Below are positions 2,702 to 59,095 of a stretch of 64,000 bases of DNA, in pieces. The notes below the pieces were generated by a model, which was not told the origin of the DNA, ran no database searches, and saw only the letters and a list, made by a program, of their open reading frames with translations. The stretch's first letter is position 1, and the number at the start of each line of letters is the position of its first letter. Location of the stretch: positions 1-64,000 of IMG/VR virus record IMGVR_UViG_3300045596_000094; one strand, 5' to 3'. Made by a program: the position numbers and the translations under genes. This stretch comes from a virus (Duplodnaviria > Caudoviricetes).

Positions 2702-4009
2702 CTATGCTGCTTGACTATAGTCTTTGAGCTTTTTGATATTTTGAGTTTTGTCTAGAGATTTCTGGACAGCCTCAATAGTTTCGGCTTTCTTTAAGCGGTG
2801 TAAACCAGCAGCCGGTATTTTACCAAATACTGGGGATTTAATTAATACTTCAGTGCGAGGATCTTCAGCACTCCAACCCAAATATTCAAGAGTTTCTGCA
2901 CCATCCAAATACTCTAATGCAATATGATTATCAATCCGTCCTTCTCGATAGATACTTTCATGAAGTTTCTCTGGAAAGTTTGTTGTTAAAATCACCACAG
3001 CCTTATGTAGTGGCTGAATACCATCAAGACCATTTAGTAATTCAGATAAGCTTCCTCGCTCACCACTATCAACCAAAACAATATCACCATATTCATTTTC
3101 GGTTTCGATTTTTGAAGACACAGTACCACTACTACCCCGACAGAAATTCGAATTAGAATCAATATCTTCAATCAAGAAAATGGTACCGTTATTTTCCAGT
3201 GCAACGTTGCGTAGACGATGAAAATCCTGTTTACAGAGTATGCCGGGTTTAAGAATAACAACATCCATCTGATAAAGCGAGGCAATGTGTCTTACAAGGT
3301 TAGTTTTTCCTGTTCCTGGAGGACCATATAGAAGAATACTTTCCTTAAAAGTAAGTTCATTTTTAAAGTAGAAATCTTCACCTTGTTGAAATTTATCAAA
3401 AACCGTTCTGATTTCGCTATAACTTTCTTTAGAAATCAACTGTCGTTGTGTTGCGAAGAAATCAGGAAGACCGGTCATCGTACCATTATCAAGTACGACC
3501 GGTTTGTAGACTTCAATAGATTTAAAACTTTCTTCAATAAGTGGTTCTAGTAAATGACGATTCCATCTGAACGCTGTAATGGTGAAGGTACCTGTCAATA
3601 AATTTTGTTGACCTCTGGATTCCCGACGCGTCATTGTTAAGAAGAAAATTGAACCGCCGAATCTAAATACCTGTGATCCAGAACCAGTAACCAAAGTCCA
3701 TTGTTTGAGCGCTCTACCATTGAGCCAAAACTCTGAACGGGCAACCTCGAATGTTCTCGATAACCATTCAATTCGATGACTAACTAACCAGTTATTGAAA
3801 TTAGTAAATCCTTCACCAGAGATGTTATCGGCTTCATCGATTGTCATGGTGATGAAAAGAATATTTTTCAAATGCGCATTCAAGAAACCAAATATTTTAG
3901 GCATCCATAAAGCCAAAGGAACGAGTAAGGTCGCAAAGATAAATTGATATTTAGAAATGGTATCACCGTAACCAGAGAGCCAGGTGGAAAGATTGTTTAG
4001 GAAGTCCAT
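2702..4009 (-). CDS. BCS1-like membrane-anchored AAA+ ATPase
   Basis: N-terminal TM helix, BCS1_N-like beta domain, Walker A GPPGTGKT, Walker B IFLIEDID, LSELLNGLDG, TTNFPEKL..SIYREGRID. Confidence 0.85.
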   Translation of the reverse strand: MDFLNNLSTWLSGYGDTISKYQFIFATLLVPLALWMPKIFGFLNAHLKNILFITMTIDEADNISGEGFTNFNNWLVSHRIEWLSRTFEVARSEFWLNGRALKQWTLVTGSGSQVFRFGGSIFFLTMTRRESRGQQNLLTGTFTITAFRWNRHLLEPLIEESFKSIEVYKPVVLDNGTMTGLPDFFATQRQLISKESYSEIRTVFDKFQQGEDFYFKNELTFKESILLYGPPGTGKTNLVRHIASLYQMDVVILKPGILCKQDFHRLRNVALENNGTIFLIEDIDSNSNFCRGSSGTVSSKIETENEYGDIVLVDSGERGSLSELLNGLDGIQPLHKAVVILTTNFPEKLHESIYREGRIDNHIALEYLDGAETLEYLGWSAEDPRTEVLIKSPVFGKIPAAGLHRLKKAETIEAVQKSLDKTQNIKKLKDYSQAA

Positions 4010-4031
4010 AATTACCTCTTAGATATAAGGG

Positions 4032-4087
4032 GAAGAGAAGCCTGAGCCTCTCTTCTATTCAAGATAATAATGTATATTTGAAAATGG
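4032..4087 (-). promoter_or_regulatory. putative early promoter TATACATTATTATCTTGAA with downstream 5'-leader hairpin
   Basis: Copy of a six-fold repeated intergenic motif; hairpin GAAGAGAGGC-TCAG-GCTTCTCTTC lies between motif and RBS. Confidence 0.7.
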
Positions 4088-4088
4088 T

Positions 4089-4583
4089 TTAGATCATTTT
4101 AGAGACGAAGGTAAATTCAACATTAATTGGGACTTCACTCAAAACGTAATCATCCGTAATAAGGTATACTGTAGCGGTTGTTTTATTACGCACCTGAACG
4201 ATCCGTTGAACACATCGAAGAATAGTTACCGGCGTATTATTTCGCACACCGGATAAAGGCCCATGCGTTAAGAAAGTACGTTCCCAATAATCTTCGCATT
4301 CAGTTTCTTGAGATTCGAAAATTGAAACGGGGGTTGCTTCTTCGATCACTCGTTTTTCTAATTGCCCTACAGGATACACTGGCGTAAATTTTTTACCGTC
4401 TGCCACCAAATGGTGCGCAAAATATGTTAGATCCTTATTTTGGCTTTTCTGATAGAATATTGAGGTGGGTTCCACATCTATTTCTTTTGGTAAAGAGGAA
4501 ATAAATTCGGGAGTCAGTGCCATGTCATTCGTTGGTGAGATTACATCTGGTGTGGGTGAGACTGGTGATTTATACGTACGCAT
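4089..4583 (-). CDS. hypothetical protein
   Basis: 164 aa ORF. Confidence 0.7.
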   Translation of the reverse strand: MRTYKSPVSPTPDVISPTNDMALTPEFISSLPKEIDVEPTSIFYQKSQNKDLTYFAHHLVADGKKFTPVYPVGQLEKRVIEEATPVSIFESQETECEDYWERTFLTHGPLSGVRNNTPVTILRCVQRIVQVRNKTTATVYLITDDYVLSEVPINVEFTFVSKMI

Positions 4584-4643
4584 GTTTAAGATTTCTCAGT
4601 TATGTTCATATTACGTTTTATGGTATTAATTTTTAACGGCATA

Positions 4644-4667
4644 GATAGAGTCCCGAAGGACTCTATC
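4644..4667 (-). terminator. hairpin terminator, UUCG loop, followed by TATGC
   Basis: GATAGAGTCC-TTCG-GGACTCTATC. Confidence 0.8.
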
Positions 4668-4671
4668 GGTA

Positions 4672-5586
4672 TTATGAGGTAAGGTTGCTGATATAGCGAT
4701 GGATATAGTTGAGTACTGTATCTTTCGATACATTAGTGATTTTGGCAAGACGATACGGGGTCAGTGGTTTAAGAATCGCAAGCTTTCCAGAGGTTAATAC
4801 CGTGTCTTTATTGGCTACAATATAAAGATCATCCCGCCATTCAATAATGTTGAAGAATACATCACCCATGCTTTCAAGCGGTGGGATATTTAGTCTATGG
4901 CCTCTTGGGGCATCCTTATTGAATAAAAGTTCGTTTCCGGATAATGTTAGTTTTTCATGAGAACCAGATGTCAACGTACATGACAACACACCGTCGGAAA
5001 GTTCTGCGGGTACTCGAGCCTGTACAGTCGGGAATACAAAAACAAGATCCTTTAACAACTCCGCCCTTTCTTTCATTATCTCGGCAACAAAGAATGTAAA
5101 CCTTGTCAATGATTCGGCTACAAGGAGATAGTTCCCCCCATATCGCAGAACCATCGCACGCGACTGTATGTGGTGTCTCGCTATAAAGTCAGTAACTGCT
5201 AAAGGGATGTCAAGGTCTTTTAGGATAGTAGCCGGAAGCTTTCCGCGCACTGAGCCGTCATTATAATTGATAGCTAAATTTTTAAATATACCATCATCTA
5301 ACAACGCATAGCTAAATGCTTTGGGTTCTGCTACGTAGGCTTGAACAGTTCCAGGATCAACACCAATATTTACCTTGAATGAGGCTATCGTTTTCCCATC
5401 GCTATTCATTAGAAAAGCCGCAACAGGAATCCCAACCCGCATAATTGGATTCAATTCCTGCCCGATTATCGCATGAGGTCTAGGGGTTCTTTCAAAGGTA
5501 ACTGGTGTATTGGGGGGTATCGGGATAATTGTGAATTTATTATCATCGACTTGAGAATTCATAATTTTCAAAAAAGATTGTGACAT
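4672..5586 (-). CDS. hypothetical protein
   Basis: Long ORF; likely start MSQSFLK (AGGA RBS) downstream of hairpin 5620-5651. Confidence 0.75.
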   Translation of the reverse strand: MSQSFLKIMNSQVDDNKFTIIPIPPNTPVTFERTPRPHAIIGQELNPIMRVGIPVAAFLMNSDGKTIASFKVNIGVDPGTVQAYVAEPKAFSYALLDDGIFKNLAINYNDGSVRGKLPATILKDLDIPLAVTDFIARHHIQSRAMVLRYGGNYLLVAESLTRFTFFVAEIMKERAELLKDLVFVFPTVQARVPAELSDGVLSCTLTSGSHEKLTLSGNELLFNKDAPRGHRLNIPPLESMGDVFFNIIEWRDDLYIVANKDTVLTSGKLAILKPLTPYRLAKITNVSKDTVLNYIHRYISNLTS

Positions 5587-5619
5587 TGTATTTGTCCTAG
5601 TGCGTAATGAGTTGTGGTT

Positions 5620-5651
5620 TATACGAGAGGGGTCGAAACCCCTCTCGTATA
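5620..5651 (-). other. stable UUCG hairpin (terminator or 5'-leader)
   Basis: TATACGAGAGGGGT-TTCG-ACCCCTCTCGTATA between the nrdB-like gene and the next gene. Confidence 0.6.
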
Positions 5652-5680
5652 TCAATGGGTTTGTAATTGGAAAATTTGGA

Positions 5681-7024
5681 TTAGTCACCAAAGTCTAACC
5701 CACCACTACCTGCAGTGGAGGTAATGGTCACATCGTGATTTGTAGATGTTGCCAATGCCTTAGAATCTAAGTATTCAATGAACCAAGCACCATCTTTAAT
5801 TGGTGAAGCTGGTACTAGGGAAGCAAGTACTTTGGTTAAATAACGATTCTTCAGATAACCCAAAATACTACTGAGTTCTTTATAATCATTTTCATCCACA
5901 GCTAATGTACTGACAAAATCTAACTCGTAGTTAATTAACTGATCGAAAGCTTCATTGATATCACGTACATATTGATCAGTAAGAACCCCTGGGTTTTCGC
6001 TAATCGCTGTACTGATAAAGTTTACACTGAAGTCCAATTGACGATTTAAATCACGTAGAACATATTCCGCATTCTTAGCGAAACCTTCTAAACCCGATTT
6101 CTTTGCCAACTTCACAATTTGAAACCAGTTAGTGATTTGAGATAAGTATTTCACACCACCAAAGAATACAACTAAGTTCTTTAAGAACTCACGTGTGTTG
6201 TCTAATCCTTTTGTTGACATATTCGGATCAAATAAAGGAGAGGTGTATTTGACTAAGAACAAATTACGTGCTTTAAATGTATCCTCATCCACTTTAAGAG
6301 AGGTTTTCAATAAACCACCACCAGGAACAACTTCAGCACCTAAATTAAAGGTCTCTTCCCAATGACGCATGGTGTGATTTAAGCAACATTCTTCAAACGC
6401 TAAACGTAAAACATACTGACGACATTCAGGGTTGGTGATGTGACGATATAAATGCATCAATAAGTCAGTAGGATAGATGTATTTACCATACATGTAGCTG
6501 ACAACAGTACGCATGATGATCTTCTTACTAGAAGTTTCTAAACCTTTATAGATTTTCTCATCATTTAGCCAGTTGATTTCAGTTGGCATCCAGTGTTTGT
6601 CGCATGAGGTCAAATAAGCTGACCAAGCCCAACCATATTTAAAAGGGATCAACTGATTTAAGTCGGTTGAACAGTTCAATAAGAACTTGTCTTTCACTTT
6701 TAAACGACCGCCAGTACCCACAATGTTAGGAACTTCTGCAATAGAGTCCTGAATACGTTTCATTAACGCTTCATTAAGTAAACCTAATCCTGCTGGGTTG
6801 GAAACCTGAGCACTAGCCATGATTGTAAGATCATCAGCTTTAGAAATCTGATCAACTTTATGATCTTTATTGGCTTTACGCTCAGCAATCGCCATTTCTT
6901 GTTCACGGAATTCTTCTTCCGCCGCTGAAGTATCAAGGTTTTTAATTGAATCGGCAGCTTTCTTTACAAGAGCTGGGTTTTCTGCTGAATCTTCTAAATC
7001 GTCCCAAGAAAGAATTGATGACAT
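5681..7024 (-). CDS. nrdB: class Ia ribonucleotide reductase beta-subunit homolog, predicted catalytically inactive
   Basis: LNC.TDLNQLIPFKY.WAW..Y...C..HWMP.E and ITNPECRQY.LR.AFEE match Pseudomonas/Acinetobacter-type NrdB; metal ligands and radical Tyr replaced. Confidence 0.85.
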   Translation of the reverse strand: MSSILSWDDLEDSAENPALVKKAADSIKNLDTSAAEEEFREQEMAIAERKANKDHKVDQISKADDLTIMASAQVSNPAGLGLLNEALMKRIQDSIAEVPNIVGTGGRLKVKDKFLLNCSTDLNQLIPFKYGWAWSAYLTSCDKHWMPTEINWLNDEKIYKGLETSSKKIIMRTVVSYMYGKYIYPTDLLMHLYRHITNPECRQYVLRLAFEECCLNHTMRHWEETFNLGAEVVPGGGLLKTSLKVDEDTFKARNLFLVKYTSPLFDPNMSTKGLDNTREFLKNLVVFFGGVKYLSQITNWFQIVKLAKKSGLEGFAKNAEYVLRDLNRQLDFSVNFISTAISENPGVLTDQYVRDINEAFDQLINYELDFVSTLAVDENDYKELSSILGYLKNRYLTKVLASLVPASPIKDGAWFIEYLDSKALATSTNHDVTITSTAGSGGLDFGD

Positions 7025-7025
7025 G

Positions 7026-7349
7026 TTAAATGTTTCCTGACGTTGTGTTTTCAATGCGAATATTAATGTAGAGATCTGCTAAGATATCTCTATTTCGAAT
7101 TTCATTACGGAGTGCGAATTTACGGAAGCCATATAAAGGAATGATTTTCATTGCCTCACTATAGCCATAACAACGCTCTGCGCCACATGGTTGTTTTCGG
7201 CAATCGCGAAGCCATAGCTTTTCGTAACGATGAATCTTACTGACGTAAAGAAATTCTTGAATGAGTTGATCGTCCGACAGTGAACTTACAGGCGAGAACT
7301 CTTTATTGAGTAAAGGGACAAAATCCCCATATTTAATTTTGACTGACAT
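7026..7349 (-). CDS. hypothetical protein
   Basis: 107 aa ORF tightly packed in operon. Confidence 0.65.
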   Translation of the reverse strand: MSVKIKYGDFVPLLNKEFSPVSSLSDDQLIQEFLYVSKIHRYEKLWLRDCRKQPCGAERCYGYSEAMKIIPLYGFRKFALRNEIRNRDILADLYINIRIENTTSGNI

Positions 7350-7352
7350 TAT

Positions 7353-7706
7353 TTAACCAAAATATTTACGAGCATCAGTTTCGTTATCATAAATACGACA
7401 ACCCCAAATAGCACAATAACCATCATGCCAACTAGCCAATTGTTTTTGATCTGTTGGATGTTTTTCATCCAGATACTGCTGTACTGCTTCTGCATAACTA
7501 AAAGCATCGTAGCTCCCTAGAAAGCGGGCGGTAGCAAAATTACCAGTTGCTTGGTAACCCTCCATCCATAAATCCCATGTTAATGGGTGTCGTTCGTGTG
7601 GGGTAAGGTTTACAGGGAAAACCTCGGGTTTATCTTTGATTCCCGACCATGGATTGTTTAACATTTCAACTAAACGATGAGTTTTAGTTTTGCGGTGATT
7701 TGACAT
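7353..7706 (-). CDS. hypothetical protein
   Basis: Likely start MSNHRK; Trp-rich motifs WMEGY.ATG and WGCRIYDNE.DARK.FG. Confidence 0.7.
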   Translation of the reverse strand: MSNHRKTKTHRLVEMLNNPWSGIKDKPEVFPVNLTPHERHPLTWDLWMEGYQATGNFATARFLGSYDAFSYAEAVQQYLDEKHPTDQKQLASWHDGYCAIWGCRIYDNETDARKYFG

Positions 7707-8067
7707 ACGATTCCCTTTTATATCGTCGAAGTAATACTCTACGTATAACAGTACAGTGGCAATTGTGATCATGTTGTTTTGGATCGAGTTCGTCCATACA
7801 CCAACAACCCAAATATATCGTATCAGTATTGATTGCTGTTTCGTAAATTTGATTTAGATATTCTCTCGCTTTAAAGTCTTCGTTATAAAGTCGTTTAAAG
7901 TCTTGATCAAAATAATCCACAGCGGCATCCACTGTGGCTACTTTTATATCTGCTTTAGATTTATCTAAATGTGAAGCAGGATTACCTAATACCGTCGATC
8001 GATCCACTTTAAAGAGTGGTGCTACTGAAAGCCCACTCCTTTTCAAATGAACAATAATGATATTCAT
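7684..8067 (-). CDS. DUF4326-like protein
   Basis: VDR.T.LGNP ... LGCWC ... CHC.VI motif set. Confidence 0.7.
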   Translation of the reverse strand: MNIIIVHLKRSGLSVAPLFKVDRSTVLGNPASHLDKSKADIKVATVDAAVDYFDQDFKRLYNEDFKAREYLNQIYETAINTDTIYLGCWCMDELDPKQHDHNCHCTVIRRVLLRRYKRESYVKSPQN

Positions 8068-8747
8068 TTTTCTTCAGGGGTTTCCGGAAACCCTTTAATC
8101 ACCGAACGTATATCTTTTGTCAACACACCAAATAGCATTCGCAATGAGTTATAGTACGCATTATGATGTATCTGGGTCTGCATCGCGTGAGCGTATGCTT
8201 CCATGATTGGGGTATATGAATTGAGAACTCTATCGGCGTACACATCTTGTTCTTTGTCTGCCCGCAGTAGTCGGCTACGAAGATCTATATAGTCTTCCAC
8301 CCACGACATATCAATCGCAAGTATATACGTGGGTTTCATTCCCAGTTGCAGGACAGTCACATGCGCGCCTGTTTTACGCAATTTACTTAACAACTTGATA
8401 TTGTCCTCAAAACAAAGGTCAATGCTTTTATAACTTGGGTCAACCAACAACACCACATGTTTTTCGTTGAAATTATGGTGATCGATTACCCAAGTGTTAA
8501 CGGAGGTGATAGTTACATTCTGGTTTGAATTGGAGGTTTCTGTTTTAGGTAACCCATGGAGGCAATCTGTTACAGGATTGAAGAAAGTGAGTTCGGGGGC
8601 GTCTTCATTTGTGTTCTTAGAGAAACAAAGTTTTTCAGCACGTGCTAATTCTTGATTTAGCTCATCATCGGATACCGGTAGAACAGCATAGTTTTGACGA
8701 ATAATGAAATCTACGCGGGCTGGGTTTAGGGTTTTGGTTAATAACAT
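8064..8747 (-). CDS. hypothetical protein
   Basis: 227 aa ORF, AGGA RBS, ATGA overlap with next gene. Confidence 0.75.
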   Translation of the reverse strand: MLLTKTLNPARVDFIIRQNYAVLPVSDDELNQELARAEKLCFSKNTNEDAPELTFFNPVTDCLHGLPKTETSNSNQNVTITSVNTWVIDHHNFNEKHVVLLVDPSYKSIDLCFEDNIKLLSKLRKTGAHVTVLQLGMKPTYILAIDMSWVEDYIDLRSRLLRADKEQDVYADRVLNSYTPIMEAYAHAMQTQIHHNAYYNSLRMLFGVLTKDIRSVIKGFPETPEEK

Positions 8748-8856
8748 TCGTAAGTCCTAGTGAGTAATAAGATGATTTGTAGTTACATAGTTTCTATTAT
8801 GCTGTAAAATAATAATCGATAATATGATTCGTTGTCTTATTACAGAGTAGATTAAA

Positions 8857-10941
8857 ATGGTTGCAATTATAAATCGTGCACTTGGAATATCCGATGTGAA
8901 GGAAGTTGGGGATACCATTGTAATTAGTGGTGCTTCAGGTTCTGCCTTAGCGAGAGATATCAAGAATCTTTGGACAACATCAAAGATTGCAAACAACATG
9001 TTTATTAAGGTTACCTGGTCTCAAGTAATTATCCCTAAGTTCTTTGCCATTGAACTAAAATATATTCTACAAAAACTTTTAGAAGAATATAGCTTACAAA
9101 CCCCGAGACGCCTAATAACTGGAATTCTTCAAGGGTTGGATGAAAATACATGGTTAAGATCTACTATAGATAAACCAGAACCTTGGTTAGATCGAAGTCG
9201 TTTTAGTGAAGTGCGAGTGAAACCCTTACCACACCAAATGGCTTTCTTCGATGTTTATGAAGAACAGAGGGTTCGTTACAACCTAAATGGTTATTTACTG
9301 GCAGCAGCTCCAGGAGCTGGTAAGACTCTGACTTCAATTTACTTAGCCTTGGCGATAAAAGCAACTAAAGTGATTATTGTAAGTCCCAAAGCTGCAATTT
9401 ATGATGTATGGGAAAAGACACTGAATGAATTAATGGTCAAACCGCAAGATCCCTATATCGCAGATCGCGATGGCGCTATTAAACCGAATAAGAAATGGCA
9501 TATCTTCCATTATGAATCTTTAGATAGAGCTGAAGAACTTGCTAAGGTATATGGTGTTCAGGGTGAGAAGGTAATGGTGGTTCTCGATGAATCCCACAAC
9601 ATTAATGATATCAAATCTCTTCGCACACAACGCTTTATAAATGTTGGACGTTATTGTCGTAGTACCGACATTCTTTGGATGTCTGGCACCCCGATTAAAG
9701 CAATGGGTGCTGAAGCGATTCCATTGATTAAATCTATCGACCCGCTATTTTCAGCTGTTGCTGAGGAAGCATTCAGAAAGATCTTTGGTAAAGATGCGAA
9801 GCGTTCATTGGATATTCTTTCACACCGTTTAGGGTTAGTTACGTATAAGGTAGCTAAACAAAACGTCATGGCAGATAAACCGATCGAAACTGCCATACCG
9901 ATTAAAATGCCGAACGGTATGGATTATACCTTAGACTCGCTCGGTAAAAAGATGAAAGCCTTTGTAGATGAGCGGGCACAATACTACATGGATAATCGAG
10001 GAGAGTTCTTAAAAGAATTCTATCGTATTACTGATAGCTATGCAAAAACGCTAAGATCTGATCAAGACAAAGCAGCTTACGATCTCTATTTGAAGAATGT
10101 CACTTATTTATCCAATAAGAAATTTCAATCGGAAGATGTGGAAATTGCGATGGCATGTAACAAATATGAGAAAGAAAAGATTCTTCCTACACTTTCGTCA
10201 ATAGACAAGAAGATCTTCACTAACGTGAAGTCGATTGTTAAATATGTTGATTTAAAGATCCGTGGTGAGGCATTAGGCAATATCTTAACTAAGGAACGCA
10301 TTCAGTGTTTTAAAGACTTAGCCCACGCTGTTGACTTTGAGCAATTGATTAATTCCGTAGAGAAGAAGATGGTGGTGTTCTCGAGTTATGTTGCTGTAGT
10401 GGATGAGACAAGAGATCTTTTAATCAAACAAGGTTTTAGTCCGATTGTGGTTTATGGTGAAACAAACCATGAGCTTCCTCGTATTGTAAAGCGTTTTGGC
10501 GAAGATCCTAAAATCAACCCTCTTATTGCTACGTTCCAATCCCTATCTACAGCTGTACCTCTTACCATGGCAAATGGGGTTACGTTCCTTAATAGCCCAT
10601 GGCGTTCGTATGAGCGCGAACAGGCGATTGCACGTGCTCACCGTATTGGTCAGGATCAACCAGTATTTGTCTACGATGTTCAGCTTGACACGGGAACAGT
10701 GCCAAATATTTCTACTCGTTCAATTGATATTCTTCAATGGTCGAAAGAGCAGGTAGATAAGATTGTAGGTGTTGACGGTTCAGCAAATGTTAGTCTGGAG
10801 TGGAACGGTTTGGATGTTCCTACCGTTGCTGATGTTTCTGATCTAGTGGAAGATGTTGCGTTTGAACCATTCTCAGATATCGGCGATATGTATGCAACTG
10901 GTCGTTTACAGCAGGGCATCACTGTATCGATGGAAAAATAA
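8857..10941 (+). CDS. SNF2-family SF2 helicase
   Basis: Q motif PLPHQ, Walker A APGAGKT, LDESH, SGTP, QAIARAHRIGQ. Confidence 0.9.
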   Translation: MVAIINRALGISDVKEVGDTIVISGASGSALARDIKNLWTTSKIANNMFIKVTWSQVIIPKFFAIELKYILQKLLEEYSLQTPRRLITGILQGLDENTWLRSTIDKPEPWLDRSRFSEVRVKPLPHQMAFFDVYEEQRVRYNLNGYLLAAAPGAGKTLTSIYLALAIKATKVIIVSPKAAIYDVWEKTLNELMVKPQDPYIADRDGAIKPNKKWHIFHYESLDRAEELAKVYGVQGEKVMVVLDESHNINDIKSLRTQRFINVGRYCRSTDILWMSGTPIKAMGAEAIPLIKSIDPLFSAVAEEAFRKIFGKDAKRSLDILSHRLGLVTYKVAKQNVMADKPIETAIPIKMPNGMDYTLDSLGKKMKAFVDERAQYYMDNRGEFLKEFYRITDSYAKTLRSDQDKAAYDLYLKNVTYLSNKKFQSEDVEIAMACNKYEKEKILPTLSSIDKKIFTNVKSIVKYVDLKIRGEALGNILTKERIQCFKDLAHAVDFEQLINSVEKKMVVFSSYVAVVDETRDLLIKQGFSPIVVYGETNHELPRIVKRFGEDPKINPLIATFQSLSTAVPLTMANGVTFLNSPWRSYEREQAIARAHRIGQDQPVFVYDVQLDTGTVPNISTRSIDILQWSKEQVDKIVGVDGSANVSLEWNGLDVPTVADVSDLVEDVAFEPFSDIGDMYATGRLQQGITVSMEK

Positions 10942-58762: not shown

Positions 58763-59095
58763 TTACTCCGGAACAATGATATCATCGTGGTGGGCATCCA
58801 CTACGATAAAGTTTACAACAGGCTCGTCTTTATTGATTTCAGCTAACTTAGTTGAGCGATTAGAAAGTTGTAATTTAAGATACCCACAATACCCTTCTTC
58901 TGCAAATGAGGCACCAAGACTTAAACCCATATCCCCGAACTTCTTACGAACACTGATGATAACGGTTTTTCCTTTTGGAACCGAAATCTTTTCTTTGATA
59001 TCAATTGTGCCAAATGAGCCCGGCTCAATCTCAACCCGTTTACTTGCTGAGAGTTCGCGTTTTACAGGTAATGGGGTAGGTGGAATAAATGTCAT
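58763..59095 (-). CDS. degenerate trimeric dUTPase-like protein
   Basis: IEPG....I...I.VP.G......R.....GL.......GY.G...L.L.N......I...E.V..F scaffold; catalytic motifs altered. Confidence 0.65.
   Translation of the reverse strand: MTFIPPTPLPVKRELSASKRVEIEPGSFGTIDIKEKISVPKGKTVIISVRKKFGDMGLSLGASFAEEGYCGYLKLQLSNRSTKLAEINKDEPVVNFIVVDAHHDDIIVPE

Follow-up and report, generated by a model that had tools for sequence, protein, structure and literature searches.

A conserved ribonucleotide reductase small-subunit homolog without a metal site in a phiKZ-like jumbo phage, a candidate non-catalytic partner of the host enzyme

What use could a phage have for a small subunit of ribonucleotide reductase (RNR) that has lost its metal site and its radical tyrosines, when its genome encodes no large subunit? 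This question is raised by P0001, a gene encoding a 447-amino acid (aa) homolog of the RNR small subunit (NrdB, R2 or beta), located at positions 5681-7024 (minus strand, stop codon included) of a 64,000-nucleotide stretch of phage DNA, the whole of which is referred to here as the window. This window covers the opening 64 kb of the IMG/VR record IMGVR_UViG_3300045596_000094 (G000), which is 269,038 bp long, has direct terminal repeats and is rated complete. RNR limits the supply of DNA precursors and is a target for drugs. Few protein regulators of its activity are known (Sml1, Spd1 and Dif1 in fungi, with Rnr4 as a helper), and we know of no phage protein with such a function. We consider it reasonably probable that P0001 is a non-catalytic beta-prime subunit engaging the class Ia RNR of the host, because catalysis appears to have been discarded, the elements making contact with the partner are kept, the phage has no partner gene of its own and the same change seems to have evolved repeatedly.

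The open reading frame (ORF) of P0001 is intact over 447 codons and matches the Pfam family PF00268 (RNR small chain) with a score of 84.5 bits (E-value 1.1e-23, cut-off 33.6 bits). The nearest solved structures are Chlamydia-type NrdB proteins (6y2n, 4d8f and 1syy; phmmer, E-values of 1e-42 to 1e-39). In these class Ic proteins, the “Tyr122” position is occupied by a Phe; among active sequences, the nearest ones, of the Pseudomonas/Moraxellaceae type, carry a Tyr there. An AlphaFold2 (AF2) model built from 34 family sequences displayed an R2 fold, with predicted local distance difference test (pLDDT) values mostly >85 over residues 110-430, and its top Foldseek match was Chlamydia NrdB (template modelling score of 0.82 on the target; hits 4m1h, 1syy and 6y2n). 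The R2 (ferritin-like) core, delimited from pLDDT, Foldseek and phmmer matches to PDB chains, spans residues 107-430 (5735-6706; this and all other features of P0001 lie on the minus strand). It is preceded by an N-terminal extension (residues 1-106; 6707-7024) predicted to be helical, with pLDDT values of 42-72, and followed by a disordered C-terminal tail (residues 431-447; 5684-5734; pLDDT <50) ending in STAGSGGLDFGD. By sequence and predicted fold, P0001 is a member of the R2 superfamily.

The positions of the metal ligands were read from phmmer and HMMER alignments, from a MAFFT alignment with 119 database relatives and from a curated alignment of 13 sequences, all of which were concordant. 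Only one of the six ligands is kept (E212), the other five positions being occupied by K181, L215, K292, L326 and Q329. Residue K181 (6482-6484) stands at ligand position 1 (D84 in Escherichia coli, E89 in Chlamydia), where the FFSTA(D/E)SL of active proteins has become SYMYGKYI. The AFEEAxHTHxY/F motif has become AFEECCLNHTM, and the segment at 6368-6391 thus comprises the retained ligand 2 (E212), L215 in place of His118 and M219 in place of Tyr122/Phe127. Similarly, xEGIFF has been replaced by VKYLSQ, with K292 (6149-6151) at ligand position 4 (E204 in E. coli), and RDExxH by RDLNRQ, in which D325, equivalent to D237, is kept and L326 and Q329 stand for E238 and H241 (6038-6052). The Tyr356-bearing element, NFFETRVxEY, corresponds to NHDVTITST, without a Tyr. 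With its metal site gone, together with the radical Tyr and the Tyr of the tail for proton-coupled electron transfer (PCET), P0001 can, judging from its residues, neither generate a radical nor relay one. It lacks the catalytic features that define classes Ia, Ib, Ic and Id. The original prediction had placed every one of these motifs as described here, and proper alignment restored no ligand. It had also claimed the loss of both radical tyrosines, which the alignments bear out at Met219 and in the replaced Tyr356 element, and a full-length ORF retaining DLNQLIPFKYGWAW, HWMPTE, ITNPECRQY and the C-terminal end GGLDFGD, all of which were read from the ORF and the alignments.

Three other identities within the superfamily were considered and rejected. 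R2lox chains (4hr0, 6f6l and others) were matched only with E-values of 0.26-0.47, and the metal ligands are absent. For class Ic R2c, a Phe or non-Tyr site requires six intact ligands for Mn/Fe, and the ligands of P0001 are lost; R2c-like proteins with intact ligands (EEH[FVI]EEH) were seen at other phage loci. As for class Ie, the positions of the His ligands are occupied by L215 and Q329 and that of the Tyr by M219, and neither PF07972 (NrdI) nor PF02867 (the class I/II large subunit) was found in G000; the earlier statement that the protein is not of class Ie therefore stands, given the missing His ligands and Tyr, the genome without NrdI and the placement of P0001 in a different clade.

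P0001 belongs to a group of ~77 sequences (~38 clusters at 50% identity), all metagenomic, which we call the ligand-less family. A word-indexed search with P0001 yielded six relatives at 63-71% identity and ~45 more at 29-39%, all without the ligands; the next matches, with no more than 29% identity, were cellular NrdB proteins from Moraxellaceae, Pseudomonas-like and other bacteria, all with the pattern D-E-H-Y-E-E-H. In a profile search of 1.84 billion representatives, ~38 clusters (50% identity) scored >288 bits, after which the score level of active NrdB was reached, and all these clusters lacked the ligands and had the equivalents of W48 and D237. The family formed a single clade (55 rows, support of 100) on a long stem in a FastTree phylogeny of 121 NrdBz-type sequences, a placement open to long-branch attraction, and the clade branched too deeply for a donor to be named. 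Independently of the tree, its members have conserved residues of their own (A23, D31, T32, E38, N191, R253, F280, Q329 and F415).

The residues around the former metal site differ widely among members of the family. Ligand position 1 is variable, position 4 is K, R or N, and the radical Tyr/Phe position, Met219 in P0001, is M, W, L, I or V, with a Trp in a large subclade. The sole general substitution is the Gln at the last His position (Q329), present in 96% of the family. Residues K181 and K292 are invariant within the closest seven-sequence clade, and the proposal that lysines fill the metal site thus holds for this clade, but not for the wider family. The ratio of nonsynonymous to synonymous divergence (omega, Nei-Gojobori method) was 0.08 for the least saturated pair of sequences, L089 and L090 (synonymous divergence dS of 1.14, nonsynonymous divergence dN of 0.092), and 0.13-0.22 for P0001 and its close relatives, with saturated dS, as for most pairs of the family. 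In these close relatives, the nrdB homolog stays beside a divergently transcribed SNF2 helicase gene, and the immediate neighbours turn over. The view of P0001 as a selected pseudoenzyme, rather than a decaying gene, is supported by the ~77 intact ORFs forming one clade, by omega values of 0.08-0.22, which give no sign of neutral decay, by the frequency of Q329 and by the invariant or near-invariant D325, W145 and E149.

No ligand-less member was present among the 80 IMG/VR loci kept from a search with the family alignment, all of which had an active NrdB except the partly degenerate L075 (see below). A megablast search of the phage collection with positions 4000-9000 of the window gave no match, and a search of IMG/VR by way of the neighbouring SNF2 helicase revealed no related phage; within IMG/VR, the family is all but confined to the record studied here. 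Comparison with cultured phages by tblastn gave no match at family level, the distant relatives having <28% identity and being known, by annotation, as RNR small subunits. A literature search aimed at ligand-less or inhibitory phage NrdB proteins found no description of such a protein.

If catalysis has been lost under selection, what has been retained? We compared alignment columns between the 77 ligand-less and 69 active NrdBz-type sequences. Constraint was common to both groups over residues 107-149 (GGR..V.DK.L.N...DLNQL.PFKY.WAW..YL....HWMP.E) and 193-217 (YR.ITNPE.RQY.LRQ.FE.....H), and at D325, E343-P345 and, within the tail, G441/L443. By contrast, the interior of the four-helix bundle and the later helices are strongly conserved in the active proteins and mostly relaxed in the ligand-less family. 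The segment W145-M-P-T-E149 (6578-6592) contains columns invariant in the ligand-less family; on the W-x-P-x-E pattern, we match W145 and E149 to W48 and E52 of E. coli, and we likewise match R324-D325 to R236-D237. In the E. coli protein, W48, E52 and R236-D237 sit on the face involved in radical transfer and in docking on alpha. The tail motif G..[LIVM]x1-2[WF] was found in 75 of the 77 ligand-less and 68 of the 69 active sequences, whereas the FFExR..Y motif of the Tyr356 element was found in all 69 active sequences and in none of the ligand-less ones, 51 of which have no Tyr at all in their last 35 residues.

The other end of the protein is also marked by a conserved peptide. An N-terminal [LIVFM]xW[DNGE] peptide (ILSWDD in P0001) is present in 54 of the 77 ligand-less and 47 of the 69 active sequences. 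In P0001, it forms part of the motif ILSWDDLED (residues 4-12; 6989-7015), recognized from the alignments, whose W7 and D8 hardly vary across the family. The extension also holds the family-specific motif KA..(x)NLDT.EAE.E, which includes A23, D31, T32 and E38. Some members are long forms (515-741 aa), in which the sequence separating the N-terminal peptide from the core has grown, bringing the N-terminal region to 250-400 aa, and a Pfam search of these expansions recognized no domain. To judge from this pattern, the N-terminal peptide behaves like a tethered short linear motif. Active NrdB proteins of the Pseudomonas/Moraxellaceae type start with MLSWD(E/D)(F/L) and end with GGALSW(D), and thus have an LSWD peptide at both termini; the ligand-less phage family likewise keeps an LSWD-type peptide at both ends. 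To our knowledge, no role has been described for the N-terminal copy, which could be a second large-subunit-binding peptide or an autoinhibitory one.

The phage itself offers P0001 no partner. Searches of G000 with phiKZ proteins (tblastn) identified homologs of chimallin (gp054; E-value 3e-17), of the beta subunit of the non-virion RNA polymerase (nvRNAP; gp055), of the DNA polymerase (gp050) and of PicA (gp069). These homologs lie together in one block, at 161-179 kb, and they mark the phage as phiKZ-like in its gene content and probably nucleus-forming. The complete genome contains no class I/II large subunit (PF02867), no class III enzyme NrdD (PF13597), no NrdI (PF07972) and no PF00268 gene other than P0001; the absence of nrdA, originally noted for the window, thus extends to the whole of G000. 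The RNR of phiKZ itself consists of gp305 (beta) and gp306 (alpha), neither of which has a homolog in G000 (tblastn), and orthology between P0001 and the phiKZ enzyme was rejected, as gp305 has no significant similarity to P0001. Since G000 has no RNR of any kind, the phage therefore depends on ribonucleotide reduction by the host or on the breakdown of host DNA. It does encode a ThyA-family protein (193958-195160, minus strand, of G000; L092:1498-2706, minus strand), presumably a thymidylate synthase or else a hydroxymethylase-type enzyme producing a modified base, which, at 402 aa against a 266-position profile, has an insertion of ~135 aa; in one relative, a dihydrofolate reductase (DHFR) gene lies two genes from the nrdB homolog. 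Both genes point to an investment of these phages in the metabolism of dNTPs. The hints as to the host are the guanine-plus-cytosine content, ~40% across the whole window, and the top cellular full-length matches, which come from Moraxellaceae.

The orphan state is not peculiar to this genome. No nrdA was found within ~10 kb at seven loci of the ligand-less family, whereas, of 80 IMG/VR phage loci whose NrdBz-type gene is active, ~60 have an adjacent nrdA. Many IMG/VR phage contigs of ~40 kb (among L018-L082) carry NrdA together with an R2c-like NrdB that has six intact ligands and a Val or Ile, not a Phe, at the radical-Tyr position (patterns EEHVEEH and EEHIEEH). One 722-aa ligand-less member (L083:4519-6129, plus strand, on a 265-kb ENA contig) lies ~4 kb from a gene for a GroEL-like chaperonin (PF00118) and near a NUDIX gene.

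Degenerate NrdB lineages also exist outside the main clade. A complete IMG/VR phage of 322,570 bp (G001) encodes an NrdB (L075:9901-11032, plus strand; 286017-286868, minus strand, of G001) with the pattern DERYKEH, in which His118 has become Arg and Glu204 Lys; the Tyr356 element is lost and the tail, GGTLNWE, is kept. This genome has no nrdA and no other PF00268 gene, and its NrdB may represent an earlier stage of the same trajectory. Another group of NrdB proteins, of 500-720 aa and with the pattern SLWVGVH, was found in a phage-like locus. Finally, a 250-kb Logan contig carries two tandem NrdB genes (L095:855-3334, plus strand), the upstream one degenerate (339 aa, DEQAAKH, tail ...EELAW) and the downstream one intact (480 aa, DEHYEEH, with an N-terminal extension). 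The degenerate lineages outside the main clade all keep an ...L.W(D/E) end. The tree requires at least three changes of the degenerate state (FastTree), and by this phylogeny the degenerate, tail-bearing NrdB lineages of jumbo-phage-like contigs arose separately.

These observations can be accommodated in the following model. P0001 would derive from a class I small subunit of the Pseudomonas/Moraxellaceae/Chlamydia type (NrdBz-type) and be kept, as a non-catalytic derivative, by an uncultivated phiKZ-like jumbo phage without RNR. The parts retained for the partner would be the flexible C-terminal tail motif, the face formed by the equivalents of W48, E52 and R236-D237, the first half of the core and the LSWDD peptide. 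The tail would fix P0001 to the NrdA of the host, P0001 being present as a beta-prime homodimer or paired with the NrdB of the host in a heterodimer, and the synthesis of deoxynucleoside triphosphates (dNTPs) by the host would be altered in the course of infection. Binding of P0001 to host NrdA or NrdB is suggested by the retained tail and docking residues, and any effect on RNR activity is likewise an inference. More generally, the chances seem evenly balanced that jumbo phages have repeatedly turned captured host-type NrdB proteins into metal- and radical-free beta-prime subunits docking on host class Ia RNR. Docking would involve the retained tail peptides and, possibly, the N-terminal peptide too. 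Such a regulator could be a dominant-negative throttle, it could be an iron-free helper, through which every host beta2 would yield two beta/beta-prime dimers of half activity, or it could be a helper that relieves feedback by deoxyadenosine triphosphate (dATP). No precedent for a natural phage-encoded protein regulator of RNR was found in the literature searched.

Could P0001 instead be a functionless, decaying remnant of a captured nrdB, or an artefact of annotation? A dying gene would at first lose just such things, its catalytic residues and its partner, but this explanation is scarcely credible in view of the full-length ORFs in ~77 sequences, the low omega values, the many invariant columns over a divergence down to 30% identity, the confident AF2 core and a gene that keeps its place beside the SNF2 helicase while its neighbours turn over. 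It is also very improbable that the protein still generates a radical, by metal-free or novel chemistry like that of the class Ie DOPA (dihydroxyphenylalanine) radical, and works with host NrdA. Class Ie R2 does function without metals and has a Lys in the former site (PMC11846895), and the large subclade with a Trp at the Tyr122 position could be read in the same way. However, the ligand-less family has no Tyr at the radical site and no His ligands, the Tyr356-type PCET residue is missing (its element occurs in none of the 77 members, and 51 of them are Tyr-free in their last 35 residues), G000 has no NrdI, and the residues of the former site vary widely, unlike those of a catalytic centre.

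A more serious alternative, unlikely on balance but by no means negligible, is that P0001 has turned its ferritin-like R2 fold to a task unrelated to RNR, as a scaffold that binds, for instance, a different protein of the host or the phage, or that takes up a small molecule in the remodelled core, with the conserved N- and C-terminal peptides serving that other partner. Such a change of function would fit the relaxation of most of the core conserved in active proteins, the conserved residues peculiar to the family (A23 to F415, listed above), the great expansion of the N-terminal region in the long forms, without a known domain, and a neighbourhood of ORFans, a BCS1-like AAA ATPase and an SNF2 helicase rather than RNR genes. 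It accounts less well for the G..L.x(W/F) end of active NrdBz tails, maintained in 75 of 77 members across divergence to 30% identity, for the W48/E52/D237 face among the residues in common with active NrdB, or for the independent degenerate lineages that keep the tail, one of them beside an intact NrdB.

Several points weigh against a beta-prime subunit acting on host RNR. The proposed docking presupposes that the host has an NrdAz-type large subunit with a groove to match this tail, and the P0001 tail ends in F-G-D, cellular tails ending in W-(D). Structural demands by themselves may explain why the W48 and D237 equivalents are conserved, and the conserved termini could serve a different partner. 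The absence of nrdA from the whole genome applies to the two complete genomes, G000 and G001, the search elsewhere covering ~10 kb. A complex prediction for the P0001 tail (residues 395-447) and an Acinetobacter-like NrdA core (150-891) gave a score of 0.01; it was run without controls and is not used as evidence. Within the beta-prime interpretation, the direction of the effect can be suggested only tentatively. P0001 is possibly an inhibitor, because dominant-negative competition with host beta is the default expectation for a dead R2 whose tail is intact. With equal reserve, it may be regarded as a helper, like Rnr4, or as a deregulating subunit, because a 269-kb phage with ThyA and without RNR, and with DHFR in a relative, seems to need the output of host RNR. 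An inhibitor looks counter-productive for an RNR-less phage.

The local context of P0001 provides further detail. Its ATG (7024-7022) is separated by a single base from the TAA of the upstream gene (7028-7026), which makes for tight coupling of the two genes, and a Shine-Dalgarno-like AGGA (7035-7038, minus strand) was read from the sequence 10 nt ahead of this start codon. A TTG further upstream, at 7054, is not the start of P0001, because the homologs begin with MS..LLSWDD. The immediate neighbours are ORFans, a BCS1-like AAA ATPase and the SNF2 helicase, with no RNR genes. The BCS1-like AAA+ ATPase (2702-4009, minus strand; 435 aa; PF08740 BCS1_N and PF00004) lies three genes downstream of P0001 and is conserved, at 51% identity, in the relative L088; ATPases of this type are unusual in phages. 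Between the SNF2 helicase and P0001 is a gene for a 127-aa DUF4326 protein (7684-8067, minus strand) with a weak DUF488-N3a match, conserved at ~60% identity in the relatives L088-L090. In L088, the SNF2 helicase (L088:23-3139, minus strand) is 1038 aa long instead of 694 and has a weak LAGLIDADG_3 match, which suggests that it carries an intein or a homing-endonuclease insertion. Towards the far end of the window, a 110-aa ORF (58763-59095, minus strand) has a match to PF22769, the dCTP-deaminase/dUTPase-like family, that is restricted to the C-terminal half (E-value 1.5e-6, profile positions 62-145 of 153), and may be a second non-catalytic homolog of a nucleotide enzyme in this phage.

If P0001 does act as a beta-prime subunit, it would provide a natural probe of the alpha-beta interface in RNRs of the Pseudomonas/Acinetobacter/Chlamydia type, reveal the way in which nucleus-forming jumbo phages without RNR control dNTP synthesis in their hosts, and clearly exemplify how pseudoenzymes can evolve recurrently in viruses.

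How does P0001 compare with systems already described? The proteins closest to it in both sequence and structure are the class Ic NrdB of Chlamydia (1SYY, 4D8F and 4M1H) and the class Ia NrdB of Pseudomonas and Moraxellaceae, with which it has in common the motifs DLNQL(V/I)PFKYxWAW, HWMPxE and ITNPECRQY; it also shares the N-terminal LSWD and C-terminal GGxLxW motifs with the cellular class Ia proteins. However, the Chlamydia/Pseudomonas-type proteins have six ligands, a Tyr356-type residue and an adjacent nrdA, whereas P0001 has one ligand, neither Tyr and no nrdA.

Loss of catalysis is also known on the other side of the enzyme. The betaherpesvirus R1 homologs M45 of murine cytomegalovirus (MCMV) and UL45 of human cytomegalovirus (HCMV) have lost catalysis and are kept for the control of cell death. 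M45, UL45 and P0001 are alike in being viral homologs of RNR subunits without catalysis, but the former are large subunits from animal viruses, and P0001 is a phage small subunit with RNR-partner motifs. A closer parallel in chemistry is offered by the class Ie proteins (R2e), which keep both His ligands, need NrdI and belong to an NrdF/Ib-like clade with NrdE. R2e (VPK/QSK; PMC6176560, PMC11846895) resembles P0001 in its substituted carboxylates and in the Lys in the former metal site; three metal-binding glutamates are substituted in R2e, and its Tyr is kept and becomes DOPA (PMC11846895). P0001, by contrast, has neither the His ligands nor the Tyr, and G000 encodes neither NrdI nor NrdE.

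The two most instructive comparisons concern small subunits that act through a partner. We begin with yeast Rnr4, a ligand-deficient R2 that acts by heterodimerising with an active beta, Rnr2, and that has lost three ligands and kept its Tyr. Like Rnr4 (Y4; PDB 1JK0, 1SMS), P0001 has the R2 fold, has lost metal ligands, is non-catalytic and is under selection, and the tandem of a degenerate and an intact gene in L095 recalls the Rnr4-Rnr2 arrangement. P0001 differs in having lost five of the six ligands, the radical Tyr and the PCET Tyr, in having an extra N-terminal extension with a conserved peptide, and in belonging to a phage without an active beta or alpha of its own, so that any partner would be that of the host. 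Common descent was rejected, as the match to 1jk0_B was only marginal (E-value 0.57) and P0001 falls within the bacterial NrdBz-type radiation. Among the poxviruses, vaccinia F4 is an orphan R2 that attaches to host R1 by a conserved C-terminal peptide, and an engineered dead form, Y300F, with an intact tail is dominant negative (PMC2900304). F4 and P0001 are both viral small subunits without a viral large subunit, and both keep a tail of the R1-binding type. Natural F4 is, however, catalytically active, its dead form being a laboratory mutant that harms the virus, whereas the dead form of P0001 is natural and selected. We propose, by analogy, that P0001 works like Rnr4 or is the natural counterpart of the dead poxvirus R2, although it descends from neither.

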